From Eubacteriales bacterium (GTDB taxonomy: Bacteria; Bacillota; Clostridia; Oscillospirales; CAG-382), in contig JAZKZH010000001.1 of assembly GCA_045612545.1 (NCBI GenBank), positions 54,513 to 118,512 of the forward strand: DNA of 64,000 nt. Reading direction: 5' to 3'. The position numbers and the translations under genes were made by a program. Below are positions 12,887-37,880 of the stretch, one piece after another; the first letter of the stretch is position 1, and every line of letters begins with the position of its first letter. The notes beneath the pieces were generated by a model. It ran no database searches and was not told where the DNA came from. It saw nothing but the letters and a program-made list of their open reading frames with translations.

Positions 12887-13261
12887 ATGGCAATGGACAA
12901 CGAACACGAAAATATCTTTTCGATACCCGCCAACTATACAGATTCCGGAAAAATACTCGGAGGATTTCTTGAGCCGAGGAATGCAATGGAGACAGCAATA
13001 TTACTGATTCTGGTGGGCTATCCGGAATTGATGATTCCTATGCCCGGCACATTGAGAATCATTGCAATGGCGGTTACGCTGATCCCGCTCGGAATACTGT
13101 CGGCAGTGGGCATCAACGGAGATTCGCTTTTTCAATATGTCGGACATGTAATCCGATTTTTTATAAACAGACGAAAACTACATTTACGAAGGGTGGGATA
13201 CAAATATGATCAAAGGCATTTCCCGAAAAGGAAACGAGCCAAAGCGAAGACAAAAGCCTGA
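12887..13261 (+). CDS. PrgI/VirB3-like small T4SS membrane protein
   Basis: 124 aa with two TM helices and a basic tail, immediately upstream of and overlapping the VirB4-like ATPase gene. Confidence 0.5.
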   Translation: MAMDNEHENIFSIPANYTDSGKILGGFLEPRNAMETAILLILVGYPELMIPMPGTLRIIAMAVTLIPLGILSAVGINGDSLFQYVGHVIRFFINRRKLHLRRVGYKYDQRHFPKRKRAKAKTKA

Positions 13262-18731: not shown

Positions 18732-19886
18732 ATGTTATATATCCGACCGGGCAGTCAGGTCCGGCAGCTTCTTACACTTCTTTCCTTCGTTGGTGAATAT
18801 CCTTTTCGTTCACTTCATCTGCTGGGTAATGAACGTGTTTATAAAGCGTTGGTCCATAAGCTAACCACTGTTCAGACTTATCGATTCCCCCAGACCGAAA
18901 CAGAACTGACGACACGACTGCTTACCGTTACCGGAAAAGCAAACCAGAAAACGCTCCGACTGTACAAGAGTGCACTTCCGATACTGGATTGGATCCACCC
19001 CGCTGCCAATCGGTATTATCTGGAGGCATTCTGGAACCATCACTTCCCCGGCAACAAAGCGCATCGCGACAGAAATCACCGTGTTGCAGAAGCAGTAGCA
19101 ATGTGCATGCGGGCAGGAATCGAATCTCGACCGTACATCCTGCCACAGCTTCAAAACCAACGAATCGCCAAACTGATTCCCAATGAGCCTTGTTTCTATC
19201 TCGCCAAAGAGCTTAAGCGACTCGGTGATATAGAAATGAAAAAAATAATGTTTACCCGTATGGTTGGGACAATCTATGCCGGAAACATCTCTTACGTCAT
19301 TTACAACACACGAGACTCGGTTATGAAATGGAGCGGTAAGGGTGAATTCAAAACGCTCCATGGTGTTACCGACATCAGCCGCTTGAATGCCGGCTTTGAT
19401 GCGACACCTTCAGCAGTTCTCTTCGGTGAGTCTGAGAATGTAGCACTCAATACGCTTATAGAATCGGATAAGTCCATACGCCCTGAATTCCGATTCGATA
19501 TCATCTATCGAAACATTCATTTTATCCCTATGAATGAATTCGGGATCCGACAGCTCAGATTCCTCTCTGTACCGGACTGGAAAGAAAAGCTGCTTGATCT
19601 GATTTTCGAGCCCGGGGTTCGAACTTACAACCGCGGGCTTTTTGAATATGATGCCAGAATTAACGGCAGCTACGTATTTTCGCATTTGGATAGCGACTTG
19701 GCAAGGCTTGTTCGCTTCAAGGAAGCAATCACAAACCAAAATGGAAAGTATGAGGTTCTCTGTTATCCTCACCAGACGCACTTTCTCCGAGAATATTTGG
19801 GCCAGCTTGTTACGATCAAGACCATCGATATGGACTCGGTGGAAGCGGAACTCGATCCGAAAAGGAGGAATCTACTTGAACAATAA
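18732..19886 (+). CDS. Hypothetical element protein immediately upstream of the coupling protein (positional relaxase candidate only)
   Basis: 384 aa whose stop overlaps the T4CP start. No relaxase His/Tyr motifs could be recognised by eye. Confidence 0.5.
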   Translation: MLYIRPGSQVRQLLTLLSFVGEYPFRSLHLLGNERVYKALVHKLTTVQTYRFPQTETELTTRLLTVTGKANQKTLRLYKSALPILDWIHPAANRYYLEAFWNHHFPGNKAHRDRNHRVAEAVAMCMRAGIESRPYILPQLQNQRIAKLIPNEPCFYLAKELKRLGDIEMKKIMFTRMVGTIYAGNISYVIYNTRDSVMKWSGKGEFKTLHGVTDISRLNAGFDATPSAVLFGESENVALNTLIESDKSIRPEFRFDIIYRNIHFIPMNEFGIRQLRFLSVPDWKEKLLDLIFEPGVRTYNRGLFEYDARINGSYVFSHLDSDLARLVRFKEAITNQNGKYEVLCYPHQTHFLREYLGQLVTIKTIDMDSVEAELDPKRRNLLEQ

Positions 19887-21738
19887 GAAACGAATGGTAG
19901 CGATCATCATTGCTATCATACTGGGATGTGCAGGGCTCTTGTATCTGGGCGGAATGATTGCACAGGTCTTGACCAATTACTCCATCTGGATGTCCGATGG
20001 AGGGATCGCCGGTCAGTCTACCATGAAGCCCGTGAGCTGGAACCCGCTGATATGCTATCCGCTGGCATTCACAGGAAACGGTCTCAAAGGCATGCTTTTG
20101 ATTCTATTAATAGCAGGCGTTATTACCGCTTATATCAAGCTTCATGATAAGTTTAGCGGAAAGCAACACGATCCCAGGGGCTTTACGAAAAGCAAATCCG
20201 GTATCTACGGTACCGCCTCTTGGATGGATGAAAAAGAAATGAAAGCAGTTTTAGAGATATCGCCTGTTTCGAGCGCAGAAGGAACGATTCTTGGCGAGTA
20301 TAAGGGGAAAGCTGTCTGTATGCCGAAGGACACCCGACTCAACCGACATATCGCCATCTTCGGTGCATCGGGTACTATGAAATCCCGCGCCATTATACGC
20401 AACGCACTGTTTCAAGCGCTCAAGCAAGGCGAGTCGGCCATTGTAACCGACAGCAAAGGCGAAATGTATGCAGATACTTCGGAGATGTTTCGCAAAGAAG
20501 GCTACGATGTGAAAGTCTACAACCTTGTCACACCAGAGCACGGAGATTCGTGGAACTGTATGTCAGACTTGAACGGTGATACTCTGATGGCGCAGGTGTT
20601 GACCAATGTCATTATCAGCAACACCAGTTCGGGCAAAGGCGATCACTTCTGGGATAACGGCGAAGGCAATCTGCTGAAGGCGCTTATCTTACTGGTAGAC
20701 CAAGACAGGACGCGAAGCCCTGATATGAAGCATTTATCCGCAGTGTATCAGTTGCTAACGCGGAACAGTGAACGACAACTCACCGCAATGTTCGAGAAGC
20801 TCCCCTTTGACCATCCTGCCCGTGCTCCATTTAGTTTGTTTGCTCAGTCAAGCGACACCGTCAAATCGGGCATCATACTTGGTTTGGGCACGCGCCTCCA
20901 GGTGTTTCAAAACACCGCAGTTCAAAAAATCACAAGCCGTTCCGACATTGACCTTACCTCACCAGCTAAAAGAAAATGTATTTATTATATCATACTGAGC
21001 GACCAGGATGCGACGATGGCATTTCTGTCATCGCTCTTTTTCTCGTTTATGTTTATCAAATTAACTCGGTATGCTGACAGCCGACCGGGTGGACGCTGCG
21101 ACGTGCCCGTAAATTTGGTACTGGATGAGTTTAACAACGTTGGGCGTATCGGCGGAGCAGAAGACGGATCCGATTTCGCCCGTTCGCTTTCCGTTGTCAG
21201 ATCCAGAGATATTCGAGTTATGTTGGCAGTACAGAGCCTTGGTCAGCTACAGAATCGATACCCGAAGAATCTTTGGGCGGAGATCATCGGCAACTGTGAT
21301 GTCCAATTGATGCTTGGATGCACCGATGACGTTACCGCAGAGTACTTCTCTGCCAGATCGGGAGATATGTCGGTACAGGTTAACTCGACTATGACGGTCC
21401 GCAAAACCATTGCCATTGCACAGTTGATACCGCAATACCGTCATACTGAAGGCCATGGGCGAAGAAGGTTGCTCACCCCGGACGAGGTCCTGAGACTTCC
21501 CAACGAAGAAATGCTCTGTGTCATACGCGGTTGTAACGTGTTGAAACTCAACAAGCTTGACTTCACCAAGCATCCTATATCCAAACAGATCCAAAAAGCA
21601 TCTGTTTATGAGTATACGCCGGCAACAGTCAGCAGCGAGCCAATTCTAAGCGAGTCTACCGCAGAGCATAGCCCCGAAAAGAAAACGTCAACTAAAAAAA
21701 CCTTATACAGTTCGGCTACCCCGCCAACTGAATTTTAA
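19876..21738 (+). CDS. Type IV coupling protein (VirD4/TraG family)
   Basis: TTG start 7 nt after AGGAGG. Two N-terminal TM helices, Walker A-like GASGTMKSRA and Walker B VLDEFNNVG. Confidence 0.88.
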   Translation: MNNKKRMVAIIIAIILGCAGLLYLGGMIAQVLTNYSIWMSDGGIAGQSTMKPVSWNPLICYPLAFTGNGLKGMLLILLIAGVITAYIKLHDKFSGKQHDPRGFTKSKSGIYGTASWMDEKEMKAVLEISPVSSAEGTILGEYKGKAVCMPKDTRLNRHIAIFGASGTMKSRAIIRNALFQALKQGESAIVTDSKGEMYADTSEMFRKEGYDVKVYNLVTPEHGDSWNCMSDLNGDTLMAQVLTNVIISNTSSGKGDHFWDNGEGNLLKALILLVDQDRTRSPDMKHLSAVYQLLTRNSERQLTAMFEKLPFDHPARAPFSLFAQSSDTVKSGIILGLGTRLQVFQNTAVQKITSRSDIDLTSPAKRKCIYYIILSDQDATMAFLSSLFFSFMFIKLTRYADSRPGGRCDVPVNLVLDEFNNVGRIGGAEDGSDFARSLSVVRSRDIRVMLAVQSLGQLQNRYPKNLWAEIIGNCDVQLMLGCTDDVTAEYFSARSGDMSVQVNSTMTVRKTIAIAQLIPQYRHTEGHGRRRLLTPDEVLRLPNEEMLCVIRGCNVLKLNKLDFTKHPISKQIQKASVYEYTPATVSSEPILSESTAEHSPEKKTSTKKTLYSSATPPTEF

Positions 21739-24538: not shown

Positions 24539-24612
24539 AAAACAATATCATGCAAAGGCACCGTGATAACAAATTTACGGTGCCTTTTCCATTTCAAAAA
24601 CGGAGGAAACAC

Positions 24613-27600
24613 ATGAAAAACAAAAAGATCTATGCCTTTGCGGTGTTACTATTGGCCATTGTAATGACCTTGGCGTTTACCGCTGTCACGATTTCTGCAG
24701 CAGAAGTAACAATGGATCTAAGCAAGGCAAAAGTGTCGGAGGAATATACCCTTAAGGATGCTGAAGGGAACGTATTCACAGCCTATTACGGATTAAAAGC
24801 GGAAGACAATCCGTTTGGCTACGAGATCAAACCCAAGCAAAGGGACATGCACGACTATATTGCAGTCAGTCCAACAGCTCCGGAGAGCAAAAGTGATTGG
24901 ATCTATGGGCAGGACTATCTATATTGCTTTTGCATCGAGCACGGGATCCCTTTGCCGGATAAATCAAATTACAGCGGTTCCGGAGAAACCGGTTACGGAA
25001 ACAAATACGAACAGCTTTCCGAAAACCAAAAGACGCTGCTATCTCTTGCGCTGGCATACGGATACCCCAACCGCACGGATATTGAGACAAGTAAGGATGC
25101 AAACGCTTGCTACAGCGCAACACAGCTCATTGTCTGGCAGATCACGCTCGGCTTCAGAAGCTCTGCCACGGAGTTGGATGACAAGACGTATCCTATGGAT
25201 GGATATACCGGCACGATGACTGAGCAGTATACCGATAATCCGTATTTAAAGGAGTATTACGATCTGATCCTGACGGATATGACTTCCCATTATATGCGTC
25301 CAAGCTTTACCGGTAATGTCCCTGCCACGGCTCCGTCATATGAAATGCAGTATGCGGATGGAAAATACAGTATCACGCTTACAGATACAAACCAAGTGTT
25401 ATCCAACTACAAGGTATCTGTCAGCGGTGGTGCTACTGTTTCAATTAATGGAAATCAATTAACGATCAGTTCGGCAAAGCCGATTACAAATGCAATTACC
25501 ATTAAGCTCAACCGGAAGATGCCCAAGACCACCCTTACTACAGGCTTCCTGATCTGGTCTGTGGCAGGCAACGAGGATAGAAACCAGGACATGGTTTCCG
25601 GTGTTCCGGCAAACAATGACCCGGTTCCTGCATATTTGAAAGTCGTCTCCCCTACCGGCTCTGCAAAAATCGTTAAAACTTCGGAAGATGGAAAGATTGA
25701 TGGTATTCGGTTTACTATCACCGGAAACGGTATAGACAAAACTGTTTCGACCGATGAAAATGGTGAAATCACCATTTCGGATTTGACACCGGGTGCATAT
25801 ACAGTTACCGAGCATACCGACAATGTATACGAACCGCAGGAACCTAGAACGGTGACTATTGTTTCCGGGCAAACAACAACCGTTTCATTTAACAACATGC
25901 TGAAGCTGGGGCATCTTGTGGTTACAAAAACCAGTGAAGACGGATTGACCAGCGGTGTACTATTCCGACTTTACGGCACCTCCGAAAGCGGCACGTATGT
26001 AGATAAGTATGTTTCTACAGATGGATCTGGGAAAGCTTTCTTCACCAATATTCCAATCGGCTCCGATTATATCCTTGAGGAAATGGCAACAAAGGATTTT
26101 TATATAACGCCAGTCAAGCAAACAGTTGAAATTGAGTGGAAACAAGCAACTACCAAGGCCGTAAGCAATGCTCTAAAAAAAAGTGAACTAAGAGTCATCA
26201 AAACTGCCGAAGACGGTATGGTAGAAGGCGTAACATTCCATCTTACGGGCACTTCGGATTCAGGGGCCAAGGTAGATCTGTATGCAACAACGGATGCAAC
26301 CGGTGTTGCAATTTTTAAAGATGTCCTTATAGGTTCCAACTACACGCTATCCGAAGAGAATACCGAATTCAAGTATATCACCCCGGTCAGCCAAGATACT
26401 GCGATCGAATGGAATCATATTACCGAGAAGAGTTTTTACAATGAGCTTAAACGTGGTGATTTGACCGTCACAAAGACTTCCGAAGACGGTTTGGTGGAAG
26501 GAATCACATTCAGGCTTTACGGCACGGCTGAATGCGGCCAGCATGTAGATGTGTATGCCACCACCGATAGCGAAGGAAAAGCGTATTTCAAAGATGTTTT
26601 GATCGGTTCCGAATATACTCTGGAAGAATGCGAGGTGAGTGAAAAGTATATCACCCCTATCGCGCAAACAAACGTATCGGTGGAATGGAATAGGGTTTCG
26701 GAGAGAGCTTTTTACAACGAGCTGAAACGTGGCAGCTTGACAGTCACCAAAACCGCAGATGACGGTTTGATAAGCGGAATTACCTTCCGCTTGTACGGAA
26801 CATCCATCAGCGGCGGAAACGTGGACTTGCAAGCCACAACGAATGAATCCGGGAAAGCAACCTTTTCGGACGTCTTGATCGGTTCAAATTATACGTTGGA
26901 GGAAGTTGCGACAGATAGCAAATATATGACTCCCCTTGAGCAAATCGTTGTGATCCAATGGGCAAAGGTAACCTTTGCGGAGATGCACAATGCGTTAAAT
27001 CACGGTGAATTACTGATCACCAAGGCTTCCGAGGACGGAAAAGTTGACGGTGTCCGCTTTACCATTACCGGAAACGGCGTGAACAAAACTGTTATGACCG
27101 ATTCCAACGGTGAGATCAAAATCCAAGACCTCCTACCCGGTACTTACACGGTAACCGAACAAAACGAAGATTACTACGAACCTCAGCCAGGCAAGACTGT
27201 GACGGTGGTGCATAATCAAACTGCTACAGTGCATTTTGAAAATATCCTCAAGCGCGGTGATCTGACCGTAACCAAGACAGCCGAGGACGGGCTGACGGAA
27301 GGTATTCGGTTCCGCCTTGCCGGCACTTCCGACAGCGGCGCCAAGATCGATGTAACCGCTACCGTAGACAACACAGGGAAAGCATATTTCAAGGACATCC
27401 TCATTGGTAGCGGTTATACGTTGGAAGAAGTGAATACCGATCTCAAATATATCGTACCCGATAGCCAGAATGTGGAGATTGAATGGAATACGGTAACTTC
27501 GGCACATGTACATAATACGTTGAAGCGAGGGGATCTAAAGGTAGTCAAAACATCTGAAGATAACTTCGTAGAAGGTATAAAGTTCCGACTCTATGGCACA

Positions 27601-30600
27601 TCACTCTCCGGCGAGAAGGTCAATGTATTCGCATATACAGACAAGGACGGTGTAGCACACTTTGATGATATTCTCATCGGCGAGCACTACACCGTAGAGG
27701 AAGTGGAAAACGCCGAGCGATATATCACCCCCAACAGTCAAACTGTCGCGATCGAATGGAACAAGGTAACCCAAAAGGACTTCTATAACGAGCTGAAACG
27801 CGGTGCCCTCAAGGTTATCAAAACCGCTGAAGATAACCTCGTAGAAGGAATCAAGTTCCGCCTCTACGGAACATCGCTCTCCGGTGAAAAAGTGGACATT
27901 TACGCCTACACCGATAAAAACGGTGTAGCTTTTTTTGAAGACATCCCTATTGGCCAAAATTACACCGTGGAGGAAGTTGACGCCTCTATCCGTTATGTCG
28001 TACCCGAAGGTCAGAACATCGACATCAACTGGAATGAAATAACGGAAGTTGAGATTCATAATGTCCTTAAAAAGTGGAGAGCGGAAGTATTCAAAATCGA
28101 CAGAGCGCTTTCGAATGAGCATGTCGAAATCCAAGATGAATTGCTGCCAAGGCTTTTCACGCTAACTTCTCACGAACAGGTAAATGTTCTTGGCGCTCCT
28201 TACGGACAGTCCCAGGGTAATGCTACCCTCGAAGGCGCGGTCTACGGTGTGTACAAGGACGGTGCGCTCATCGACACCTATATCACTGACAAAAACGGAT
28301 ATTTCCTTACTGACTACTATCCTTGCTACGAGAACGTGGAATGGATGATCCGTGAGATCAGCCCCAGTGAAGGATATCTGCTGGACGATACCGTCTATGA
28401 TATCGACACCTACGCAGGGCTTTACACCGTGGAACTAAACACCGTCTATCCCGACGTGTATGAGGACATCATCAAGGGCAAGATCACCATCATCAAGCAT
28501 ACCGATGACGGCTCCACCAAGATCGAAACTCCCGAAGTCGGTGCCATGTTTGAGATCTATCTCAAGAGTGCAGGCAGCTATGAAGTCGCCGAAACCACCG
28601 AAAGAGATATCCTCACCTGTGATGAGTTCGGCTATGCCGAAACCATCGACTTGCCTTACGGCGTGTACGTGGTAAAGCAGATCAAGGGCTGGGAAGGCCG
28701 TGATCTGCTCGATCCCTTTGAGGTGTTCGTCAGTGAGGACGGCGAAGTATATCGCTATCTCATCAACAACGCCAATTTCGAGTCCTATCTCCACGTGGTC
28801 AAGGTGGACGGCACGACCGGAAATACCATCCCTTATGCGGGAGCAGGTTTTCAGGTCTACGCACCCGACGGCAAGCTCGTCACCATGAGCTACACCTACC
28901 CGACACTGACTGTGATCGACACCTTCTACACCAACGAGGAAGGTACGCTTCTCACCCCCGAAAAGCTCCCTTACGGCGAGGGCTATTACCTTGTGGAGGT
29001 GCAGGCACCCCACGGTTACGTCCTCGATGCTACTCCTATCTACTTTGACGTGACTGAGGAAAACTCCGCCGATGAAAACGGCATTACACTCGTCAAGGTA
29101 GTCAAGGAGAACGAACCGCAGAAAGGAACGATCACAATCACCAAGACCGGTGAGGTCTTCACCTCTGTGGTGGAATCCAATGGAGCATATCAGCCCGTAT
29201 ATGAGATCAAGGGCTTGGCAGGTGCGGTCTATGAGATCACTGCCGCCGAGGATGTGGTAACCCTCGACGGTACGATCCGCTATAAGAAGGGCGACGTCGT
29301 TGCCACCATCACCACAGATGCAGACGGAACAGCTACCACCGAGCCGCTGTTCCTCGGCAAATTTGAAATCCGTGAAATTACAGCCCCTTGCGGTATGCTT
29401 TTGAACGGCGACACCGTAACTGCAGAGCTGACCTACGCCGGACAGGAGATCAAGATCACAGCCACCTCCGCAGCTTTCGTCAATGAAAGACAGAAGGTAG
29501 AAATCGACCTTACCAAGACCTTGGAACAGGACGAGAAATACCATATCGGTATGAATGGTGAGATCACCTCCGTCAAGTTCGGCTTGTATGCCTCTGAGGA
29601 TATCACCGCAGCTGACGGTAATATCATCCCCAAAGACGGTCTCATTGAAACCGTAACCTGCGACGAAAACGGCAAGGCGGTATTCATGGCTGATCTTCCC
29701 GTGGGCGCAAAGGTATATGTCAAGGAGATCGCAACCGACAACTACTATATCCTCGACCACAGCACCTATACCGTGACCTTCGACTATGCAGGCCAGGACA
29801 CCGCGGTGGTGAAGATCTCCGTGAATAACGGCGAAGCCATCACCAATGAGATTATCCGTGGCAACATCATCGGCAAGAAACTGGCTGAGGACGGCTTCAC
29901 CATCTGCGGTGCGTTCTTCGGTCTCTTCTGCGAAAACGAAACCGAGTTCACTGAAGAAATAGCCCTTGCTACCTGCCAGTCCAATGAGATCGGTGTCTTC
30001 ACCTTCGAGGATGTACCCTTCGGCAGATGGATCGTCCGTGAGATCAAAGCAGCTCCCGCATTCGTACTGAACGAAAACAGTTACGCTGTAACCGTAAGCA
30101 CAGACGAGGAAGTGATCGAGATCACCATCGAGAATGAGTTCATCACCGGCTCGGTCAAGACCACGAAGGTGGATAAGGAATACCCCGACAACAAGCTGTC
30201 CGGTGCTGTTTTTGAAGTCTATGTGGACGTGGACGGCAACGGCGAATTCAATCCCGAAATCGACCTCTTGGTAGGCGAGATGACCGAAACCGAGGACGGC
30301 ATCTATGAGATGCACGACCTTCGCTATAACGGATATTTCCTCTATGAAAAGACCGCGCCCGAAGGCTTTCTCAAGGATGAGGACTACCACTATTTCGAAA
30401 TCAGAAACGACGGCGAAACCGTTATCGTAGAAAACGAGGCAGGCGTTGGCTTTGTGAACAACCCCCTGCTTGCCAATTTGAAAATTGTCAAATCTTCTAC
30501 CGATGGACAGCTGGAAGGCTTTTCGTTCCGTATCACCGGGCCAAACTACGACGCAGTATATACAACTGATAGCGGAGGTGAAATTTTCGTTGAAAATCTG

Positions 30601-30846
30601 AGAATCGGCAACTACACGATTACAGAAATACTCGACGAAGCAAGTGAAGGTTACCTTATCCCCTCCCCCATTGAAGCAGAGCTACTCAACGGTGAAACCC
30701 TAACAATTGAGGTATACAACGAGAAGCTTCCGCAGACCGGAGATGATTCCAGTTTGTTTCCCTGGTTCATGCTTATGCTATTGAGCATGGGAGGGTTGAT
30801 CGGTGTATTCGTTTATACGCATACAAAGAAGCGTTATGATTTATAA
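24613..30846 (+). CDS. Giant LPxTG-anchored surface adhesin: N-terminal thioester-type domain plus many Cna-B/SpaA-like repeats
   Basis: 2077 aa with a signal peptide, YCFCIEHG and ATQLIVWQ thioester-domain-like motifs, more than 15 Ig-like repeat units, and a C-terminal LPQTGD + TM + KKRYDL sorting signal. Confidence 0.9.
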   Translation: MKNKKIYAFAVLLLAIVMTLAFTAVTISAAEVTMDLSKAKVSEEYTLKDAEGNVFTAYYGLKAEDNPFGYEIKPKQRDMHDYIAVSPTAPESKSDWIYGQDYLYCFCIEHGIPLPDKSNYSGSGETGYGNKYEQLSENQKTLLSLALAYGYPNRTDIETSKDANACYSATQLIVWQITLGFRSSATELDDKTYPMDGYTGTMTEQYTDNPYLKEYYDLILTDMTSHYMRPSFTGNVPATAPSYEMQYADGKYSITLTDTNQVLSNYKVSVSGGATVSINGNQLTISSAKPITNAITIKLNRKMPKTTLTTGFLIWSVAGNEDRNQDMVSGVPANNDPVPAYLKVVSPTGSAKIVKTSEDGKIDGIRFTITGNGIDKTVSTDENGEITISDLTPGAYTVTEHTDNVYEPQEPRTVTIVSGQTTTVSFNNMLKLGHLVVTKTSEDGLTSGVLFRLYGTSESGTYVDKYVSTDGSGKAFFTNIPIGSDYILEEMATKDFYITPVKQTVEIEWKQATTKAVSNALKKSELRVIKTAEDGMVEGVTFHLTGTSDSGAKVDLYATTDATGVAIFKDVLIGSNYTLSEENTEFKYITPVSQDTAIEWNHITEKSFYNELKRGDLTVTKTSEDGLVEGITFRLYGTAECGQHVDVYATTDSEGKAYFKDVLIGSEYTLEECEVSEKYITPIAQTNVSVEWNRVSERAFYNELKRGSLTVTKTADDGLISGITFRLYGTSISGGNVDLQATTNESGKATFSDVLIGSNYTLEEVATDSKYMTPLEQIVVIQWAKVTFAEMHNALNHGELLITKASEDGKVDGVRFTITGNGVNKTVMTDSNGEIKIQDLLPGTYTVTEQNEDYYEPQPGKTVTVVHNQTATVHFENILKRGDLTVTKTAEDGLTEGIRFRLAGTSDSGAKIDVTATVDNTGKAYFKDILIGSGYTLEEVNTDLKYIVPDSQNVEIEWNTVTSAHVHNTLKRGDLKVVKTSEDNFVEGIKFRLYGTSLSGEKVNVFAYTDKDGVAHFDDILIGEHYTVEEVENAERYITPNSQTVAIEWNKVTQKDFYNELKRGALKVIKTAEDNLVEGIKFRLYGTSLSGEKVDIYAYTDKNGVAFFEDIPIGQNYTVEEVDASIRYVVPEGQNIDINWNEITEVEIHNVLKKWRAEVFKIDRALSNEHVEIQDELLPRLFTLTSHEQVNVLGAPYGQSQGNATLEGAVYGVYKDGALIDTYITDKNGYFLTDYYPCYENVEWMIREISPSEGYLLDDTVYDIDTYAGLYTVELNTVYPDVYEDIIKGKITIIKHTDDGSTKIETPEVGAMFEIYLKSAGSYEVAETTERDILTCDEFGYAETIDLPYGVYVVKQIKGWEGRDLLDPFEVFVSEDGEVYRYLINNANFESYLHVVKVDGTTGNTIPYAGAGFQVYAPDGKLVTMSYTYPTLTVIDTFYTNEEGTLLTPEKLPYGEGYYLVEVQAPHGYVLDATPIYFDVTEENSADENGITLVKVVKENEPQKGTITITKTGEVFTSVVESNGAYQPVYEIKGLAGAVYEITAAEDVVTLDGTIRYKKGDVVATITTDADGTATTEPLFLGKFEIREITAPCGMLLNGDTVTAELTYAGQEIKITATSAAFVNERQKVEIDLTKTLEQDEKYHIGMNGEITSVKFGLYASEDITAADGNIIPKDGLIETVTCDENGKAVFMADLPVGAKVYVKEIATDNYYILDHSTYTVTFDYAGQDTAVVKISVNNGEAITNEIIRGNIIGKKLAEDGFTICGAFFGLFCENETEFTEEIALATCQSNEIGVFTFEDVPFGRWIVREIKAAPAFVLNENSYAVTVSTDEEVIEITIENEFITGSVKTTKVDKEYPDNKLSGAVFEVYVDVDGNGEFNPEIDLLVGEMTETEDGIYEMHDLRYNGYFLYEKTAPEGFLKDEDYHYFEIRNDGETVIVENEAGVGFVNNPLLANLKIVKSSTDGQLEGFSFRITGPNYDAVYTTDSGGEIFVENLRIGNYTITEILDEASEGYLIPSPIEAELLNGETLTIEVYNEKLPQTGDDSSLFPWFMLMLLSMGGLIGVFVYTHTKKRYDL
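25663..28075 (+). repeat. Tandem in-frame ~88-aa repeat array inside the adhesin gene
   Basis: About ten units of the type LKRGDLTVTKTSEDGLVEGITFRLYGTS.SG..VD.YATTD..GKA.F.DVLIGS.YTLEE…YITP..Q…IEWN. Two units belong to a shorter FTITGNG subtype. Confidence 0.85.
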
Positions 30847-31406: not shown

Positions 31407-31476
31407 CGCACCAGACTGAGCTGGCATGAACAGCATGCATTTCTTTGTAAAACATCTGTGAACATTCCAAAATCGC

Positions 31477-31505
31477 TTGACTTTCAACTGCTTTTTTGAT
31501 ATACT
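31477..31505 (+). promoter_or_regulatory. Near-consensus promoter
   Basis: TTGACT (31477-31482), 17-nt spacer, TATACT (31500-31505). It is followed by a ~255-nt untranslated leader. Confidence 0.55.
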
Positions 31506-31766
31506 ATAAGCGTGGCAGGAGCTTGCGTTCAGGCTCTCGATACGCTCATAGTTCAGCGTCAGACTTGACCTTTGCAAAAGGCAGGAAATCGTTACGGATC
31601 TGTGCACAGAACAAGATCCACAATAACGCAAGCGACGATATATAGCCGGAAGGCTGCTTAAATACTTACAGAGTCAATTGGTTGGATGAGACGAATATTC
31701 CAACGCTTTGGCTCTGTTTGTTTTTGCAGTTCTTCCGGCTTTTCTTTTTTGAAATCGGAGGAGAAA

Positions 31767-33232: not shown

Positions 33233-33254
33233 TCGCAAACGGTACATACACCGG

Positions 33255-33278
33255 TTCGGGGTTCCCCGAATCTTTTTT
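33255..33278 (+). terminator. Intrinsic terminator after the signal peptidase gene
   Basis: TTCGGG-GTTC-CCCGAA hairpin followed by TCTTTTTT. Confidence 0.6.
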
Positions 33279-33285
33279 GCGCCCG

Positions 33286-33336
33286 GAAATCTCGTCGAAG
33301 CAACCAAAATTCGGCTAATCGTCGAAAAATATGGCG
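33286..33336 (+). repeat. TCGTCGA-type repeat motif upstream of the recombinase promoter
   Basis: CTCGTCGAAG (33291-33300) and ATCGTCGAAAAATATGGCG (33318-33336). The second copy closely matches the copies at 17.1, 35.7 and 37.9 kb. Confidence 0.7.
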
Positions 33337-33341
33337 TAAAT

Positions 33342-33370
33342 GTAGCACAGGCAGAAAAAAACAGTATAAT
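33342..33370 (+). promoter_or_regulatory. Putative activator-dependent promoter of the recombinase gene
   Basis: TATAAT at 33365-33370 with a weak -35 (GTAGCA) 17 nt upstream. The repeat motif ends 6 nt upstream of the -35. Confidence 0.45.
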
Positions 33371-33409: not shown

Positions 33410-34246
33410 GTGAGAAGAATAACAGAAATACAGGTCAATACGTTTCTGGCACAGCTTCGCGATGAAGAAAAAAGCGAAGCAACAATCGAGAAATACCGAA
33501 GAGACGTTTATTGTTTCAGGGACTTTATTGGCGAAGAACCGATCGACAAGCAAAGCTGCATGAAATACAAAGCGTACATCAGTGAAAAATATGCTGTTGC
33601 AAGTGTCAACTCGATGATCGCTTCCCTGAATTCGTTTTTTAAATTCTGCGGCTGGTACGACTGTTGTCTAAGGCAACTACGTGTTCAAAAGCGTGTATTT
33701 TGCTGTGAAGAAAAAGAGCTGAGCAAAGCGGAATACACCAGGCTTATCCATACGGCAAGATTCCAAAGGAATGAACGACTGTATTATTTGTTGCAAACAA
33801 TCTGCAGTACCGGCATACGAGTCAGCGAATTAAAATTTATCACGGTGGAAGCCGTGCGAAAGGGCCTCGCGATCATTCAGTGCAAGGGAAAGACGAGGGA
33901 AATTCTGATCGTATCCGATCTGAAAAAGTGCCTTTTGAAGTATGTCCGCAAAATAGGTCTGGAGTCTGGATCTATCTTTGTTACAAAATCCGGGAAGCCG
34001 ATCGATCGTTCAAACATCTGGCGAGAAATGAAGGCGCTGTGTAAAAAAGCAAAAGTTTCTGAGAAAAAAGTGTTTCCCCACAACCTTCGACATCTTTTTG
34101 CAAGGCTTTTCTATAAAATAGAAAAAGACATCGCAAAGCTTGCGGATGTCTTGGGGCATTCCAGTATTAACACCACTCGAATCTATATTATTTCAACCGG
34201 CTCCGAACATCGAAGAACAATGGAACATATGCACTTGATTTTATAA
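33410..34246 (+). CDS. Tyrosine site-specific recombinase (XerC/XerD-like, short form)
   Basis: 278 aa with GIRVSEL (Arg), HNLRHLFA (His-x-x-Arg), LGHSSINTTRIY (His…Tyr), and a SAM-like N-terminal core-binding domain. Confidence 0.85.
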   Translation: MRRITEIQVNTFLAQLRDEEKSEATIEKYRRDVYCFRDFIGEEPIDKQSCMKYKAYISEKYAVASVNSMIASLNSFFKFCGWYDCCLRQLRVQKRVFCCEEKELSKAEYTRLIHTARFQRNERLYYLLQTICSTGIRVSELKFITVEAVRKGLAIIQCKGKTREILIVSDLKKCLLKYVRKIGLESGSIFVTKSGKPIDRSNIWREMKALCKKAKVSEKKVFPHNLRHLFARLFYKIEKDIAKLADVLGHSSINTTRIYIISTGSEHRRTMEHMHLIL

Positions 34247-34248
34247 TG

Positions 34249-34268
34249 CAACATAATTAGCATTATGT
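34249..34268. repeat. Left inverted repeat of the candidate invertible segment
   Basis: CAACATAATTAGCATTATGT, starting 3 nt after the recombinase stop codon. It is the perfect reverse complement of 34461-34480. Confidence 0.9.
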
Positions 34269-34305
34269 GCTATAACACGATATGATACCAATATTTTCCG
34301 CTTCC

Positions 34306-34334
34306 ATTATACCAATTAAAAGCAATAAAGTCAA
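34306..34334 (-). promoter_or_regulatory. Consensus sigma-A promoter inside the IR-bounded segment, currently pointing toward the recombinase gene
   Basis: Minus strand TTGACT (34329-34334), 17-nt spacer, TATAAT (34306-34311). Confidence 0.6.
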
Positions 34335-34460
34335 GTTATCATACAGCGAAAACTCAAGCAAATAACTAATTTTTGCATGGCAAAAAGCCCTTTGAAAAAA
34401 AGAGCTGTTAAAAAACACAAATTTAATGTTTTACAGAATACGTCTATGTTTATTCGTACA

Positions 34461-34480
34461 ACATAATGCTAATTATGTTG
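34461..34480. repeat. Right inverted repeat of the candidate invertible segment
   Basis: ACATAATGCTAATTATGTTG, the reverse complement of 34249-34268, lying 20 nt upstream of the XRE gene start. Confidence 0.9.
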
Positions 34481-34500
34481 TATTATTGGAGGAATGAATC

Positions 34501-34863
34501 ATGAAGCATTTGCGTGAACTGCGCGACTTAACAGGGACACCCCCAAAAATGCTTTCCAAGCTTTTGAACGTAACCGTGCACACCTATATAGCGTTCGAAC
34601 AAAAAAGAATGACTTTAACCCCCGAGATTATTGTAATGCTCTCCATGATGTACCATGTAGACAAACAAATGATCACCGGGGAGCTGAGTATCGACAACAA
34701 TACGCGGATCCAATTGTCGGTGATTGGCGAGATGGGCGAAGAAGAAAAGCTAACCTTTTACGCTGAGCGATTGTTGGGCAAGCACATCAAACCTACCGGA
34801 AAAAATATCCGCGACAAGAAAAAAGAAATTGAAGACGCGCTGTTCGAAAAGCGTGGAAGATAG
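34501..34863 (+). CDS. XRE-family helix-turn-helix transcriptional regulator
   Basis: 120 aa. The N-terminal LRELRDLTGTPPKMLSKLLNVTVHTYIAFEQKR is HTH-like. RBS GGAGG. Confidence 0.7.
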   Translation: MKHLRELRDLTGTPPKMLSKLLNVTVHTYIAFEQKRMTLTPEIIVMLSMMYHVDKQMITGELSIDNNTRIQLSVIGEMGEEEKLTFYAERLLGKHIKPTGKNIRDKKKEIEDALFEKRGR

Positions 34864-34910
34864 AAAAGCAACAGGTGCCGATCCTTTCGGTGGCGCCTGT
34901 TGCTTTTGTT
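34864..34910. terminator. Bidirectional intrinsic terminator between the XRE gene and agrD
   Basis: 16-bp stem AAAAGCAACAGGTGCC / GGCGCCTGTTGCTTTT (one G-U) with A/T runs on both sides. Confidence 0.8.
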
Positions 34911-34924
34911 TGCAAATAATTCAA

Positions 34925-35065
34925 TTATTTGCGGAATGCATCCATTGCGCTAGGGGTCTCAGGCTGGTAGAAGAAGGAAGCGCAAGCAGAATTTGCTGCG
35001 AAGATGCCTACAGCCAATGCCAGTGCGGGAAGAGTAGATGCGAGTTTTGCGAAAAATTTCTTCAT
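34925..35065 (-). CDS. agrD: AgrD-like autoinducing peptide precursor (46 aa, absent from the ORF track because it is under 60 aa)
   Basis: MKKFFAKLASTLPALALAVGIFAANSACASFFYQPETPSAMDAFRK. Amphipathic leader, Cys + 4 residues (CASFF), then a YQPETP tail. Its ATG overlaps the agrB stop (ATGA). Confidence 0.7.
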   Translation of the reverse strand: MKKFFAKLASTLPALALAVGIFAANSACASFFYQPETPSAMDAFRK

Positions 35066-35679
35066 GGGTTTTGTTTCTCCTTTGTTTGTTGTATTTTAGC
35101 ACTCAAAAGAGCGAATGCTGCAGAGAAGATACCGAGGGAAAAGCTCAATATGTATGTACTGAGTTGTGTTGCAAACAAAACGAGGACTGCCACTATTATG
35201 GGAATAATATATGCGTATACGCAACACATTTTTCTGAATCGTTTGCGTTCTGTTTTGATAAACGGTTTATTTGGATGATCGATTGGCGCAAAAATCAACA
35301 GAAGCACCGAAGATATCAAGATGGCTACTACAGAAGCAACAGGATGATGCTCTTGAGGTAGAAAGACGATCAGAAGTATAAACAGAACCTGATTCAGCAA
35401 AGAAAGCAAATGACACACAGAATAGGTTGCAGCGTGATATCCTCCAGCAATTGAACGTGTAGTAAAAAAGGCAACGCCGAACAACAGAGAATAGAAAATC
35501 GTTCCGGTAAAAACCGCTAGGACAACAAAAAGCAAAATATATGCCACATACGAAAGAAGGATTTCAAAACCATAGCAATACACGTCACGTTGTTGGGGTT
35601 CAATAATTCCCGATTTTACAAATTTGTCAGTTAAAACACTTGAAAGTTTCTTATACAAATGAAAAACTCCTTCCAACAT
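35062..35679 (-). CDS. agrB: AgrB-family AIP-processing membrane peptidase
   Basis: 205 aa, polytopic, with RSIAGGYHAATYSVCHLLS carrying the conserved His/Cys pair region. Confidence 0.85.
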   Translation of the reverse strand: MLEGVFHLYKKLSSVLTDKFVKSGIIEPQQRDVYCYGFEILLSYVAYILLFVVLAVFTGTIFYSLLFGVAFFTTRSIAGGYHAATYSVCHLLSLLNQVLFILLIVFLPQEHHPVASVVAILISSVLLLIFAPIDHPNKPFIKTERKRFRKMCCVYAYIIPIIVAVLVLFATQLSTYILSFSLGIFSAAFALLSAKIQQTKEKQNP

Positions 35680-35693
35680 GATTGAACAAGTAC

Positions 35694-35723
35694 ATTATCA
35701 ATCTTAATGGAAGGAGTTGTCAA
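35694..35723 (-). promoter_or_regulatory. Possible agrBD promoter
   Basis: Minus strand TTGACA (35718-35723), 17 nt, TGATAA(T) (35694-35700). The leader to the agrB ATG would be very short and no SD is visible. Confidence 0.4.
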
Positions 35724-35730
35724 CAGATAT

Positions 35731-35762
35731 CCCCTATTCGTCGAAAAAATCGCCTCAATCGT
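35731..35762. repeat. TCGTCGA-type repeat motif between the kinase stop and the agrB promoter
   Basis: CCCCTATTCGTCGAAAAAATCGCCTCAATCGT, which aligns with the reverse complement of 37841-37880 over ~28 positions. Confidence 0.75.
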
Positions 35763-37062
35763 TGCGCTGCGGGCAGAAGTTGCTTAAAATAATAGATGTC
35801 GTGAATTCCTCCTCAGAGCATAAGAACGTAACATCTCCATTATATCTCTCGGAAAGTTGCTTCATGCTAATGATTCCGTAACCATGCATCGAAGACTTCT
35901 CCTTTGTTGTACGAAGATTAGCAACATCGACTTTTTTCTCTACAGGATTCTTGATAGTAATAACTATTGACTTATTTTTAATTGTTACCACTAAACGAAT
36001 TGTTTTCCTCGTGTAGTCCGAAACATTCGCAGTGGCCTCAATGGCATTATCTAGCGCATTACCAAGGATGACAGAAAAATCGATTGCCGGTAATACAAGT
36101 TGCTCAGAACATCTATATTCAAAGTCAATACAGATGCCATTCTTTTTTGCAATTTCATTTTTGATAGCCACGAGCAAGCGTACTATATCATTTGGCTTCT
36201 CCGTCATATCATTTAAAAAAGCGTTTTCTGACTCGAGCTTATTTACAACCGTTTCTATATTTCCAGTTTGTAACTCCGCTAAAACGCCAATGCAGAAATT
36301 TTTTTGATCATGACGCAATTTTACAACTTCAGAATGATGCTCTATTACAGCTTCATATTGCTTGGTCTGTTGAGAGATAATTTCATTTGCCGCATTTATT
36401 TTTGTTTCGTAGATAGTATTTTTATAAAGCGTATCAATGAATTCGAAAATTAGTATATTAGCAATAATTAAAAGAGAATAGCAAACAAGCACTAAAACAG
36501 AAATAAAGTCGCTTTGACCCGGCGAATAAACAAAAATACCATGTTGCAATAAAATGATAGCTAAAGTGGCAAAAGGATAAACAAAAACAGTGAAATTACC
36601 TTTTTGAACGATTTGAAACAATGCTTTTTTTCGTTTGAGTTTTATCGAAATAATCAATATAAACATGAGAAATTTCGATAAAAGCATCCCCGAAATAAAC
36701 AAAACCCCTTCTTTTATCATTGTTAATTCCACATGAAAAAGCCACGACATTAAAAACGCCACAATCATCTCAATGGCAGCAATGATGACAAAAAATATCA
36801 TTGTACATAAAACTCTGCTGAGGAATTTAGCTTGATATAAGTATGACAAACAAAAGGATAGGACTAGCAAAGCCAAATATTGTATAGCCGATCCTTTAAA
36901 GCACAGCAAAAACGGGGTGCATATCACACTGGTAACCACGAGCACACCAATCGAAATATATGAACGATAAAGTTTTTGCCAAAAACAATCAAAGAGCCAG
37001 TATGCTAGAAAAAAATGAAGAAACGCATTAACAAATTCTGTGACAATATTCAAAAACAACAT
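35755..37062 (-). CDS. agrC: AgrC-like sensor histidine kinase (GHKL ATPase, HPK10-type)
   Basis: 435 aa. ~6 N-terminal TM helices, a coiled linker, and ATPase motifs GNALDNAIEA and HGYGIISMKQL. Confidence 0.85.
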   Translation of the reverse strand: MLFLNIVTEFVNAFLHFFLAYWLFDCFWQKLYRSYISIGVLVVTSVICTPFLLCFKGSAIQYLALLVLSFCLSYLYQAKFLSRVLCTMIFFVIIAAIEMIVAFLMSWLFHVELTMIKEGVLFISGMLLSKFLMFILIISIKLKRKKALFQIVQKGNFTVFVYPFATLAIILLQHGIFVYSPGQSDFISVLVLVCYSLLIIANILIFEFIDTLYKNTIYETKINAANEIISQQTKQYEAVIEHHSEVVKLRHDQKNFCIGVLAELQTGNIETVVNKLESENAFLNDMTEKPNDIVRLLVAIKNEIAKKNGICIDFEYRCSEQLVLPAIDFSVILGNALDNAIEATANVSDYTRKTIRLVVTIKNKSIVITIKNPVEKKVDVANLRTTKEKSSMHGYGIISMKQLSERYNGDVTFLCSEEEFTTSIILSNFCPQRND

Positions 37063-37063
37063 T

Positions 37064-37765
37064 TTATCGAACCTCTATATACTGAGCATATGCAGTCAGC
37101 ACTTCCGAACGTTTTCTGACGCTGACGGGAACAGCTTCATCGTTGCAAAGGATAGCGGAATACTTATCGAAATGGCTAATCTTATCTAAATTAACAATAT
37201 ATCCTTGATGGACTTGCAGGAATCCGAAATTGCGCAAGCTTTTGTACGCCTCTGCCAAAGTTCCGAGGGTAGTGTATTTCTTGTTTTTCAAGTGATAAAT
37301 CACGTGTTTTTGGCAGCATTCGACATAGTAAATGTCTTTACACCGCAGGCGAATAAATTCCGTTTTGATTTTGATAATATGGAACTGATTGCTTTCACGG
37401 TAGCGCAAAATCAAGCGCTGCAAAACATTCGTTGCTTTTCCCACACAAAGCGGCTTTATCAAATAGTGAAACGCATGGCAGTCATAGCCTTCCAATGCGT
37501 ATTGTGGATAACTGGTCACAAATACGATCTCCGTTTGAGGACTCTTGCTTTTAACCAGCTTCCCCAATTCAATTCCGTTCATCCCGGGCATGTCGACGTC
37601 CAGGAATACAACATCGTACATACGTCCACTTCTTATGGCCCGAGACATTTCCAAGCTGGAGGTAAAGGGGTCCACCTTATATTCCATTTCTCCCATATTG
37701 TCGATGATTGTTTTATGAATCGCTTCAACATCGGGTTTCGAATCATCACAGATCGCAAAATACAT
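37064..37765 (-). CDS. agrA: LytTR-family response regulator (AgrA-like)
   Basis: Receiver domain (FLDVDMPGMNG) plus a C-terminal LytTR DNA-binding domain (IYYVE…QVHQGYIVNL). Confidence 0.9.
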   Translation of the reverse strand: MYFAICDDSKPDVEAIHKTIIDNMGEMEYKVDPFTSSLEMSRAIRSGRMYDVVFLDVDMPGMNGIELGKLVKSKSPQTEIVFVTSYPQYALEGYDCHAFHYLIKPLCVGKATNVLQRLILRYRESNQFHIIKIKTEFIRLRCKDIYYVECCQKHVIYHLKNKKYTTLGTLAEAYKSLRNFGFLQVHQGYIVNLDKISHFDKYSAILCNDEAVPVSVRKRSEVLTAYAQYIEVR

Positions 37766-37840: not shown

Positions 37841-37880
37841 GGTTTTTTCGACAATGAGGCGAGTTTTTTCGACGAATGGG
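37841..37880 (-). repeat. Two TCGTCGA-type direct repeats (21-bp period) upstream of the regulator promoter
   Basis: Minus strand CCCATTCGTCGAAAAAACTCGCCTCATTGTCGAAAAAACC, ending 13 nt upstream of the -35. Confidence 0.8.

Follow-up and report, generated by a model that had tools for sequence, protein, structure and literature searches.

Do the inverted repeats that separate a tyrosine recombinase gene from a small regulator gene in a Eubacteriales bacterium enclose a phase-variation switch, and if so, which enzyme turns it and what does it set? The question arises at positions 34243-34486 of a 64-kb stretch of assembly GCA_045612545.1 (contig JAZKZH010000001.1, forward strand, positions 54,513-118,512), which is called the window here and to which all coordinates refer. 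We regard this region with good confidence as a phase-variation switch in the form of an insulated invertible promoter cassette. The segment between the repeats inverts precisely at the repeats in natural variants. In sequence comparisons with relatives, the family of recombinases goes along with the family of sites, and the segment has a conserved predicted promoter and hairpin. The switch and the genes on both sides of it comprise the following features.

33410-34246, plus strand: Xer-like tyrosine recombinase of 278 amino acids (aa), probable invertase; stop codon 34244-34246; Pfam Phage_integrase, E 2e-23
34243-34268, no strand: left recombination site (IRL); 20-mer 34249-34268; core ACATAAT TAGC ATTATGT 34251-34268; centre 34258-34261
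34269-34460, no strand: invertible segment of 192 bp; in the window state its predicted promoter points toward the recombinase; nine same-species contigs carry it inverted
34306-34334, minus strand: predicted σ70-type promoter TTGACT-17-TATAAT with TG extended -10; 11 of 12 consensus positions match
34378-34406, minus strand: terminator-like hairpin upstream of the promoter, AGCTCTTT-TTTTC-AAAGGGCT followed by TTTTTGCC
34461-34486, no strand: right recombination site (IRR); 20-mer 34461-34480; core ACATAAT GCTA ATTATGT 34461-34478; centre 34468-34471
34488-34863, plus strand: ribosome-binding site (RBS) and gene of a 120-aa XRE-type helix-turn-helix (HTH) protein with a C-terminal three-helix domain; GGAGG 34488-34492, ATG 34501

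An earlier note on this DNA, made from the sequence alone, had described exact 20-bp inverted repeats, and both copies are indeed exact: CAACATAATTAGCATTATGT occupies 34249-34268 and its perfect reverse complement 34461-34480. They are the only two copies in the window with up to three mismatches allowed, and 100 shuffles gave an expectation of 0.01. A repeat finder lengthens the arms to 26 nt at the cost of one mismatch (96% complementarity; 34243-34268 and 34461-34486), and these arms bound a short segment of 192 nt; the extended left repeat overlaps the recombinase stop codon. Both sites have the form ACATAAT-N4-ATTATGT, the left centre being TAGC and the right one GCTA, and the 64-kb window holds no third site of this form. 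In the right site the arms form a perfect 11-4-11 palindrome, TACAACATAAT GCTA ATTATGTTGTA. Since the asymmetric centres lie in inverted orientation, recombination between the two sites should invert the segment.

Natural inversion of the segment

The earlier note had predicted inversion from the opposite orientation of the two centres, and natural variants of the locus bear this out. We surveyed contigs that encode the identical recombinase or one of the four other members of its 90% cluster, which gave 27 distinct same-species contigs from independent metagenome assemblies. The same 20-mer follows the recombinase stop codon in all of them except L001, where it differs by a single base. In 14 of the 27 contigs the segment lies as in the window, in nine it is the exact reverse complement between unchanged repeats, and four contigs break off with the last base of the left repeat.

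Both states occur within one and the same allele. For allele P0125 the contigs L095, L097, L099 and L100 are inverted and L096 and L098 window-like; for allele P0124 the inverted contigs are L105 and L106, and L101-L104 and L108 are window-like. The breakpoints can be read from L095 and L096, two independent assemblies whose flanks differ at 3 of 3645 positions. Across the 192 bp they are perfect reverse complements with 0 mismatches, and the differences between them run from the first base past the left repeat to the last base before the right repeat, which places the breakpoints at the inner repeat edges. The inversion is conservative and reversible, and it has taken place repeatedly within the species. 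For the four contigs that break at the repeat end we infer that both orientations were mixed in one sample, since the repeat is shorter than the word length of an assembler.

A family of recombinases, sites and promoter cassettes in gut Clostridia

The recombinase beside the segment has a SAM-like N-terminal domain (Pfam). Aligned to the XerA and XerD structures of the Protein Data Bank, it retains all six residues of the R-K-H-R-H-Y set, namely R in GIRVSEL, K in KGK, H and R of the HxxR motif in HNLRH, H in GHS and Y in RIY. Its NCBIfam scores stay far under the cut-offs for XerA (137.9 against 220), XerD (117.5 against 329.6) and XerC (109.5 against 335), and the same holds for the FimB and FimE models (PRK09870, 24.3 bits against 221; PRK09871, 20 bits against 222), which by sequence places the enzyme outside FimB/FimE and in a separate Xer-like branch. 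The inverted site pairs beside the gene and the several copies per genome likewise set it apart from the XerC/XerD/XerA resolvases. Its description as a short recombinase in the earlier note needs correction, as 278 aa is the normal size of a Xer protein and short solely relative to phage integrases.

A scan of GTDB with one genome per species returned 279 relatives of the recombinase, of which the 80 best were kept. These 80 are 57-65% identical to the window enzyme and come without exception from gut or rumen Clostridia (Oscillospiraceae, Acutalibacteraceae, Ruminococcaceae and Lachnospiraceae, including Roseburia, Agathobacter and Blautia); several relatives in one genome are common. The protein database searched holds more than 8000 clusters at E<1e-30, many of them from contigs of 1-2 kb. 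Two ACATAAT-N4-ATTATGT sites, starting 5-60 nt past the recombinase stop codon, are present in 65 of the 80 loci. A single site was found in 13, eight of which are contigs that end 0-6 nt past it, and two loci have none.

Read from outside to inside the site consensus is nAACATAAT-NNNN-ATTATGTTGTA, with arms that are 96-100% conserved. The centre is free to vary between loci, with 35 different tetramers among 65 centre-matched loci (the window and two same-species contigs among them), and yet in 62 of the 65 two-site GTDB loci each partner centre is the exact reverse complement of the other. It is established for Cre, Flp and other tyrosine recombinases that strand exchange needs matched centres in the two partner sites. 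Conserved arms around a free but matched centre are the pattern expected of recombinase-binding elements around a crossover region, and the core-site architecture of palindromic arms and asymmetric centre proposed in the earlier note finds its support here. Paralogous switches within one genome mostly differ in their centres, as in CAKSIG01, where four loci (L043, L064, L069, L077) carry CTGT, CTTC, CCAT and GGGG; one paralogous pair (L058, L061) has the centre CTGC in common.

The distances from centre to centre (loci L007-L086) cluster at 210, about 231, about 241, about 251, about 262, about 273, 347 and 378 bp. The strongest period in these spacings is 10.5 bp, with a Rayleigh R of 0.707 that none of 5000 jittered controls reached; the loci are related by descent, and this count is not a clean probability. 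A period of 10.5 bp fits a need for helical register between sites that meet in a short synaptic loop.

Not only the sites but also the predicted regulatory content of the segment is conserved. The minus-strand promoter TTGACT-17-TGgTATAAT (34334 to 34306) is the top promoter match of the region and conserved in its position within the family, so that this element of the earlier note stands as described. Its hexamers are identical in all six segment variants of the species, and a strong promoter whose -35 element starts 64-79 nt from the repeat was recognised in 44 of 65 family loci. By sequence (the 11/12 match, the TG extension and the family-conserved position), an internal promoter would thus face a flanking gene in one of the two orientations. 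Promoters in family reference assemblies point toward the recombinase in 51 of 60 cases and toward the cargo in nine.

Upstream of the promoter, the hairpin of the window (34406-34386, minus strand) is present in both the minimum free energy and the centroid fold, and a search of Rfam gave no known RNA in the switch. A hairpin at the homologous position occurs in 37 of 63 family segments. Its stems differ in sequence and stay paired all the same (GCCTTTCC/GGAAAGGC, CCCTTTTA/TAAAAGGG, AGCCGGTC/GGCCGGCT), and T-runs often flank it on both sides in the manner of bidirectional terminators. In the aligned segments, the general plan with the promoter pointing forward is a site, about 60 nt, the hairpin AAGCCTTtc...gaAAGGCTT followed by TTTTTTGTCATGC, about 50 nt, the promoter TTGACA-17-TGnTATAAT, about 40 nt, and the second site. 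A hidden Markov model (HMM) of the family segment, built without the window, matches the minus strand from 34481 to 34248 over the full model (E 2.7e-12). By this comparison the window switch is a compact homologous member of the family, with a segment of 192 bp against the usual length of about 243 bp.

The cargo of the family is varied and includes surface proteins, SPFH-like proteins and methyltransferases, which suggests that the cassette acts as a portable switch. In many loci the cargo gene starts 20-35 nt past the outer repeat and has no promoter of its own. Two species-level genomes (L035, L049) carry the same 431-aa cargo and the centre CTGC with the cassette in opposite orientations. 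In another locus (L050, 5106-5155) the right-hand site is duplicated; the three sites could permit alternative inversions. Plasmid and phage collections gave distant relatives only (at most 50% identity, with generic annotation), and the recombinase family appears to be essentially chromosomal. Relatives of about 60% identity are present in Ruminococcus intestinalis NSJ-71 (L036) and Massiliimalia timonensis Marseille-P3753 (L059), which could serve as cultured models. Another cultured strain, Pusillibacter faecalis MM59, carries on pMM59_01 (L114, 3324-3643) a 49%-identical recombinase with a different 26-nt repeat pair, core GACAAAAACAACATTTCGT. This pair starts at the recombinase stop codon, is 268 bp apart and lies ahead of a gene with S-layer homology. 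The different repeats show that members of the wider clade are paired with other sites, and the locus looks like a sister subfamily of other site specificity and a possible laboratory model.

The XRE-type regulator, the agr-type locus and their surroundings

To the right of the switch, the RBS and the ATG of the XRE-type gene begin 8 and 21 nt past the right 20-mer, in agreement with the distance of about 20 nt given in the earlier note. A promoter scan of the region called no promoter for this gene in the OFF configuration. From the sequence layout we infer that it is the gene controlled by the switch.

Its product is assigned to the XRE type by a family profile and a structure model. The single sequence stays below the threshold of Pfam HTH_3 (E 0.041), an exact protein look-up gave no match, and a word-indexed homologue search returned a single 93% cluster only. 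A full HMMER search found 57 distant XRE representatives of about 115-125 aa, and a JGI metagenome scan gave no relatives of the 10-sequence XRE alignment. The family profile matches CylR2 (6e-6) and other Xre/Cro proteins, and 19 of 43 family members have a Pfam HTH_3 match. An AlphaFold2 model reached a pLDDT (the confidence measure of the model) of 94.7 when based on the alignment, against 46 from the single sequence. Its five N-terminal helices (55-60 aa) superpose on CylR2, ImmR, SinR-N and DdrO-N at about 1 Å, and its three further helices have no clear structural match. Profile, relatives and model superposition agree on a five-helix domain of the HTH_3 type; the XRE identity named in the earlier note is upheld by family profile and structure model, and the sequence taken singly does not reach it.

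The gene on the far side of the regulator belongs to an agr-type locus. This locus and the other elements outside the switch are listed here.

33319-33370, plus strand: probable promoter region of the recombinase gene; -10 TATAAT 33365-33370, TCGTCGAAAAA at 33319-33329
34864-34907, no strand: bidirectional terminator common to the XRE and agrD genes; 16-nt inverted repeat, 94% complementary, with A-run and T-run flanks
34925-37765, minus strand: agr-type quorum-sensing locus (Pfam matches), convergent with the XRE gene
34925-35065, minus strand: AgrD-like 46-aa precursor; weak Pfam AgrD match (E 0.009, below cut-off), Cys in the C-terminal half
35062-35679, minus strand: AgrB; Pfam AgrB 1.9e-34, probable start TTG at 35658
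35755-37062, minus strand: GHKL histidine kinase; HATPase_c_5 6e-23
37064-37765, minus strand: LytTR response regulator; Pfam LytTR and Response_reg

The locus thus has all four parts of an agr-type system, AgrB, AgrD, GHKL kinase and LytTR protein, with a weak match for AgrD. The AgrD-like precursor ends in ...AANSACASFFYQPETPSAMDAFRK; a CASFF stretch is followed by a conserved acidic/Pro motif, which fits a five-residue thiolactone autoinducer. Contrary to the earlier note, the regulator is not back-to-back with the agr locus; the genes are convergent, tail to tail, and have the terminator at 34864-34907 in common. A 21-nt inverted repeat at 35665-35718 (86% complementary) pairs the agrB RBS with the spacer of an internal agrBD promoter (TTGACA...TGATAAT), and the RBS of agrB could be sequestered in this way in transcripts that read through from the kinase gene.

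The arrangement of XRE gene and agr locus recurs in L109, L110, L112 and L113 around XRE relatives of 39-46% identity. Three of these contigs, L110, L112 and L113, which represent two lineages (XRE 39% identity), show recombinase, switch and XRE gene convergent with agr. On L110 lie the 3' end of a recombinase gene, sites whose centres are CATC/GATG, the XRE gene and, convergent with it, an AgrB gene; L112 and L113 have the recombinase, the centres CCGC/GCGG, a predicted promoter toward the XRE gene, and AgrD, AgrB and the kinase. The fourth contig, L109 (1073-1560), carries a recombinase that is internally deleted (residues 134-243 are gone) and a single core site, ACATAATCGGCATTATGT; the segment is lost, and both the XRE gene and the entire agr locus have remained intact. 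By its sequence L109 is a decayed switch of a related species. Since the same arrangement surrounds XRE relatives of this divergence, the link between XRE and agr genes is conserved across species, and with it the predicted control of the XRE gene by the switch.

A further element may tie the recombinase to the same circuit. The 11-mer TCGTCGAAAAA has exactly three copies in the 64 kb, all in promoter regions of a 4.6-kb neighbourhood: upstream of the recombinase (33319-33329), upstream of agrBD (35738-35748, inverted) and upstream of the response regulator (37865). The last copy forms with a one-mismatch copy at 37844 a direct repeat of 22-bp spacing (37844-37875) that resembles a LytTR site. 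This distribution hints at a common regulator, perhaps the LytTR protein, that would tie quorum sensing to recombinase expression. The 11-mer was not found upstream of the recombinases of L109 and L113, so that this link is a lead for the window species only; the agrB promoters of both contigs have a related element, CAACGAATA.

To the left of the recombinase gene, a terminator at 33253-33272 closes the upstream signal-peptidase gene. A set of DUF3268, sigma-70 and signal-peptidase genes, headed by the DUF3268 gene, ends at the terminator just before the recombinase. The DUF3268 RNA motif (Rfam RF02966, 90 bits) lies at 31514-31634 on the plus strand, upstream of the DUF3268 zinc-finger gene, with a promoter-like site nearby at 31449-31509.

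Proposed mechanism, alternatives and known systems

We propose that dimers of the Xer-like recombinase bind the two 26-bp sites through 11-bp arms of the TACAACATAAT / ATTATGTTGTA type, that the sites synapse, and that strands are exchanged in or around the 4-bp centres. In the window state the promoter would fire into the 3' end of the recombinase gene and give an antisense RNA, and the XRE gene, without a promoter of its own, would be OFF or low. After the flip, transcription that comes from the recombinase gene would end at the hairpin, and the promoter, now about 30 nt inside the right repeat, would drive transcription across the right site, over about 70 nt, to the RBS and start codon of the XRE gene, which would be ON. 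The XRE-type protein is conserved beside an agr-type locus in several species, and most likely the switch creates subpopulations that differ in the setting of this quorum-sensing circuit or its regulon.

Several points weigh against this account or limit it. The evidence for both orientations is taken from consensus assemblies of separate samples, and a mixture within one population is implied solely by the contigs that break at the repeat. The variable centre of 4 bp is smaller than the crossover regions of 6-8 bp in characterised tyrosine recombinases, and the cleavage positions are a prediction only. Promoter function and the ON/OFF effect on the XRE gene are predicted from the sequence, and an effect of the XRE protein on agr is predicted from the gene neighbourhood. 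The hairpin of the window has no T-run in the direction from recombinase to XRE gene, so that read-through from the recombinase promoter could give basal XRE expression; OFF may mean low rather than zero expression. Genomes of this group often hold several paralogous recombinases with the same site arms, and one of these might flip the switch in place of the adjacent enzyme.

Palindromes can also be operators. Dimeric HTH proteins bind such sites, and the right site overlaps the 5' leader of the XRE gene, so that the two palindromes might serve the XRE regulator or another repressor in autoregulation or in control of the recombinase rather than recombination. The same arms, however, follow recombinases of about 60% identity in 62 loci with cargo unrelated to XRE, the asymmetric centres and the flanks are inverted and not direct, and natural variants show a physical inversion of the DNA between the sites. 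The observed inversions contradict the operator reading, which we reject as extremely improbable. We likewise give next to no credence to the view that the recombinase is the integrase of a conjugative element and the repeats are remnants of its attachment sites. Such elements typically have a tyrosine recombinase gene at one edge, and the gene content from about 9000 to 31400 does point to an integrative conjugative element left of the switch, with a VirB4-like ATPase (13206-15740), a type IV coupling protein (19642-21738) and a 2098-aa LPXTG repeat adhesin (24550-30846). Attachment sites, however, are direct repeats at the ends of an element and not inverted repeats 192 bp apart. The same repeat pair accompanies family recombinases in many unrelated contexts and in several copies per genome, inversion is the only rearrangement observed, and the enzyme is Xer-like in size and architecture and lacks an arm-binding domain. 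The integrase reading was rejected on the inverted repeats at this distance, the family-wide pairing and the occurrence of inversion only.

Two other proposals accept the inversion and concern its output or its enzyme. The main output could be self-control of the recombinase: in the window state, antisense RNA would lower recombinase levels and stabilise the state in a fimE-like manner, and control of the XRE gene would be secondary. The preponderance of promoters facing the recombinase in the family reference assemblies speaks for this, as does a terminator-like site on the minus strand inside the 3' end of the recombinase gene (34144-34132), which would yield a short antisense RNA over the region of the catalytic tyrosine. 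The orientation excess may, however, just mean that OFF is the commoner state, the antisense RNA is itself a prediction, and the promoterless cargo close behind the outer repeat in many loci makes control of the cargo the simplest purpose; we consider self-control as the main output unlikely. It is also doubtful, and in our estimate distinctly improbable, that a paralogous recombinase catalyses the inversion in trans and the adjacent gene is dispensable. All family members have the same arm sequence, a genome such as CAKSIG01 holds up to four or more copies, and RecV of C. difficile serves several switches. On the other hand, a recombinase adjoins the switch in essentially every locus, and in L109 the recombinase deletion accompanies the loss of the segment and of one site, so that the pair seems to function and decay together.

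With the cassette retained as an invertible promoter that serves the XRE gene, a wider picture can be offered tentatively, as one that may well not hold in full. A modular, self-contained cassette of Xer-like invertase, 11-4-11 sites, bidirectional terminator and promoter may have spread to thousands of loci in gut Clostridia, with the 4-bp centre as an address against cross-recombination between paralogues and a spacing in whole helical turns, and may have been recruited here to a regulator of an agr circuit. The cargo is unusual in that it is not a surface structure but a transcription factor whose gene keeps its place next to an agr-type locus for peptide quorum sensing. If the proposal is true, the setting of cell-cell signalling would be heritable and at the same time reversible within a clone. 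If TCGTCGAAAAA is functional, cell density would also tune the switching rate and couple quorum sensing to bet-hedging. Gut Clostridia are abundant, hard to culture and genetically intractable, and phase variation in them is known mostly from read-mapping catalogues; the locus offers a dissected example with defined sites, an arm/centre rule, a promoter/terminator cassette and hundreds of natural variants for testing. If the rule of matched centres holds, it would provide many mutually orthogonal sites for one type of enzyme, useful in genetic tools for Firmicutes.

Among known systems, the closest sequence relatives of the enzyme are the Xer proteins (XerC/D, XerA, XerH, XerS), whose dif sites also have inverted arms of about 11 bp in an 11-6-11 arrangement. 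Unlike Xer/dif, the window family has two inverted sites beside the recombinase gene, several copies per genome and a variable centre of 4 bp. Its predicted outcome is promoter inversion and not dimer resolution, and the scores lie far below the XerA/C/D equivalog cut-offs. The invertible promoters of Bacteroides (Mpi/Tsr) are similar in that gut bacteria carry many promoter invertons per genome which control surface structures; they differ in phylum, promoter type and repeat motifs, and Mpi is a serine recombinase that acts globally.

The RecV switches of C. difficile (flgB, cwpV, cmrRST) are likewise regulatory inversions by a tyrosine recombinase in Clostridia, and cmrRST provides an earlier instance of a signal-transduction or regulatory system under phase variation. 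The gene for RecV lies at a distance from most of the switches that the enzyme turns, and RecV acts on several different repeats, which are not known to be related in sequence to the window repeats. In the family described here, by contrast, each switch has its own adjacent recombinase and the site is conserved family-wide.

The literature search gave one relevant source, the hCom2 inverton catalogue, and no description of the site motif or of a phase-variable agr-linked regulator; the motif in the supplement of this catalogue stands outside the comparison (PMC11892184). Its inverton group 139 comprises 33 invertons, 32 of them from Clostridia. Nearly all adjoin a tyrosine recombinase gene that belongs to invertase group 35; the repeats measure 13-25 nt and the inner segments about 206-228 bp, and sequencing reads from cultures recorded shifts in orientation (PMC11892184, 2025). 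Taxon, recombinase adjacency and dimensions agree between the window family and group 139 with invertase group 35; the two are very probably one family, matched by description and not by sequence (PMC11892184). The 11-4-11 rule with covarying centres, the terminator-promoter cassette, the 10.5-bp spacing and the XRE/agr cargo appear to be absent from the main text of that paper (PMC11892184).

The earlier note had drawn a parallel to fim-type switches, which is sound for the mechanism and fails for the enzyme. Like fimS of E. coli with FimB/FimE, the window switch has a short segment bounded by inverted repeats, a predicted σ70 promoter within it, an adjacent tyrosine recombinase and output in one orientation, and the possible effect of orientation on the recombinase resembles the orientational control of fimE. 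In contrast to FimB/FimE, the enzyme is a Xer-like protein of 278 aa with a SAM-like N-terminal domain and falls far short of the FimB/E models. The sites are 20-26 bp long with 11-4-11 architecture as opposed to 9-bp repeats, the segment measures 192 bp against 314 bp, and the cargo is a regulator where that of fim is a fimbrial operon. The kind of switch is already known, and its mechanism matches promoter inversion of the fimS/FimBE and RecV type.

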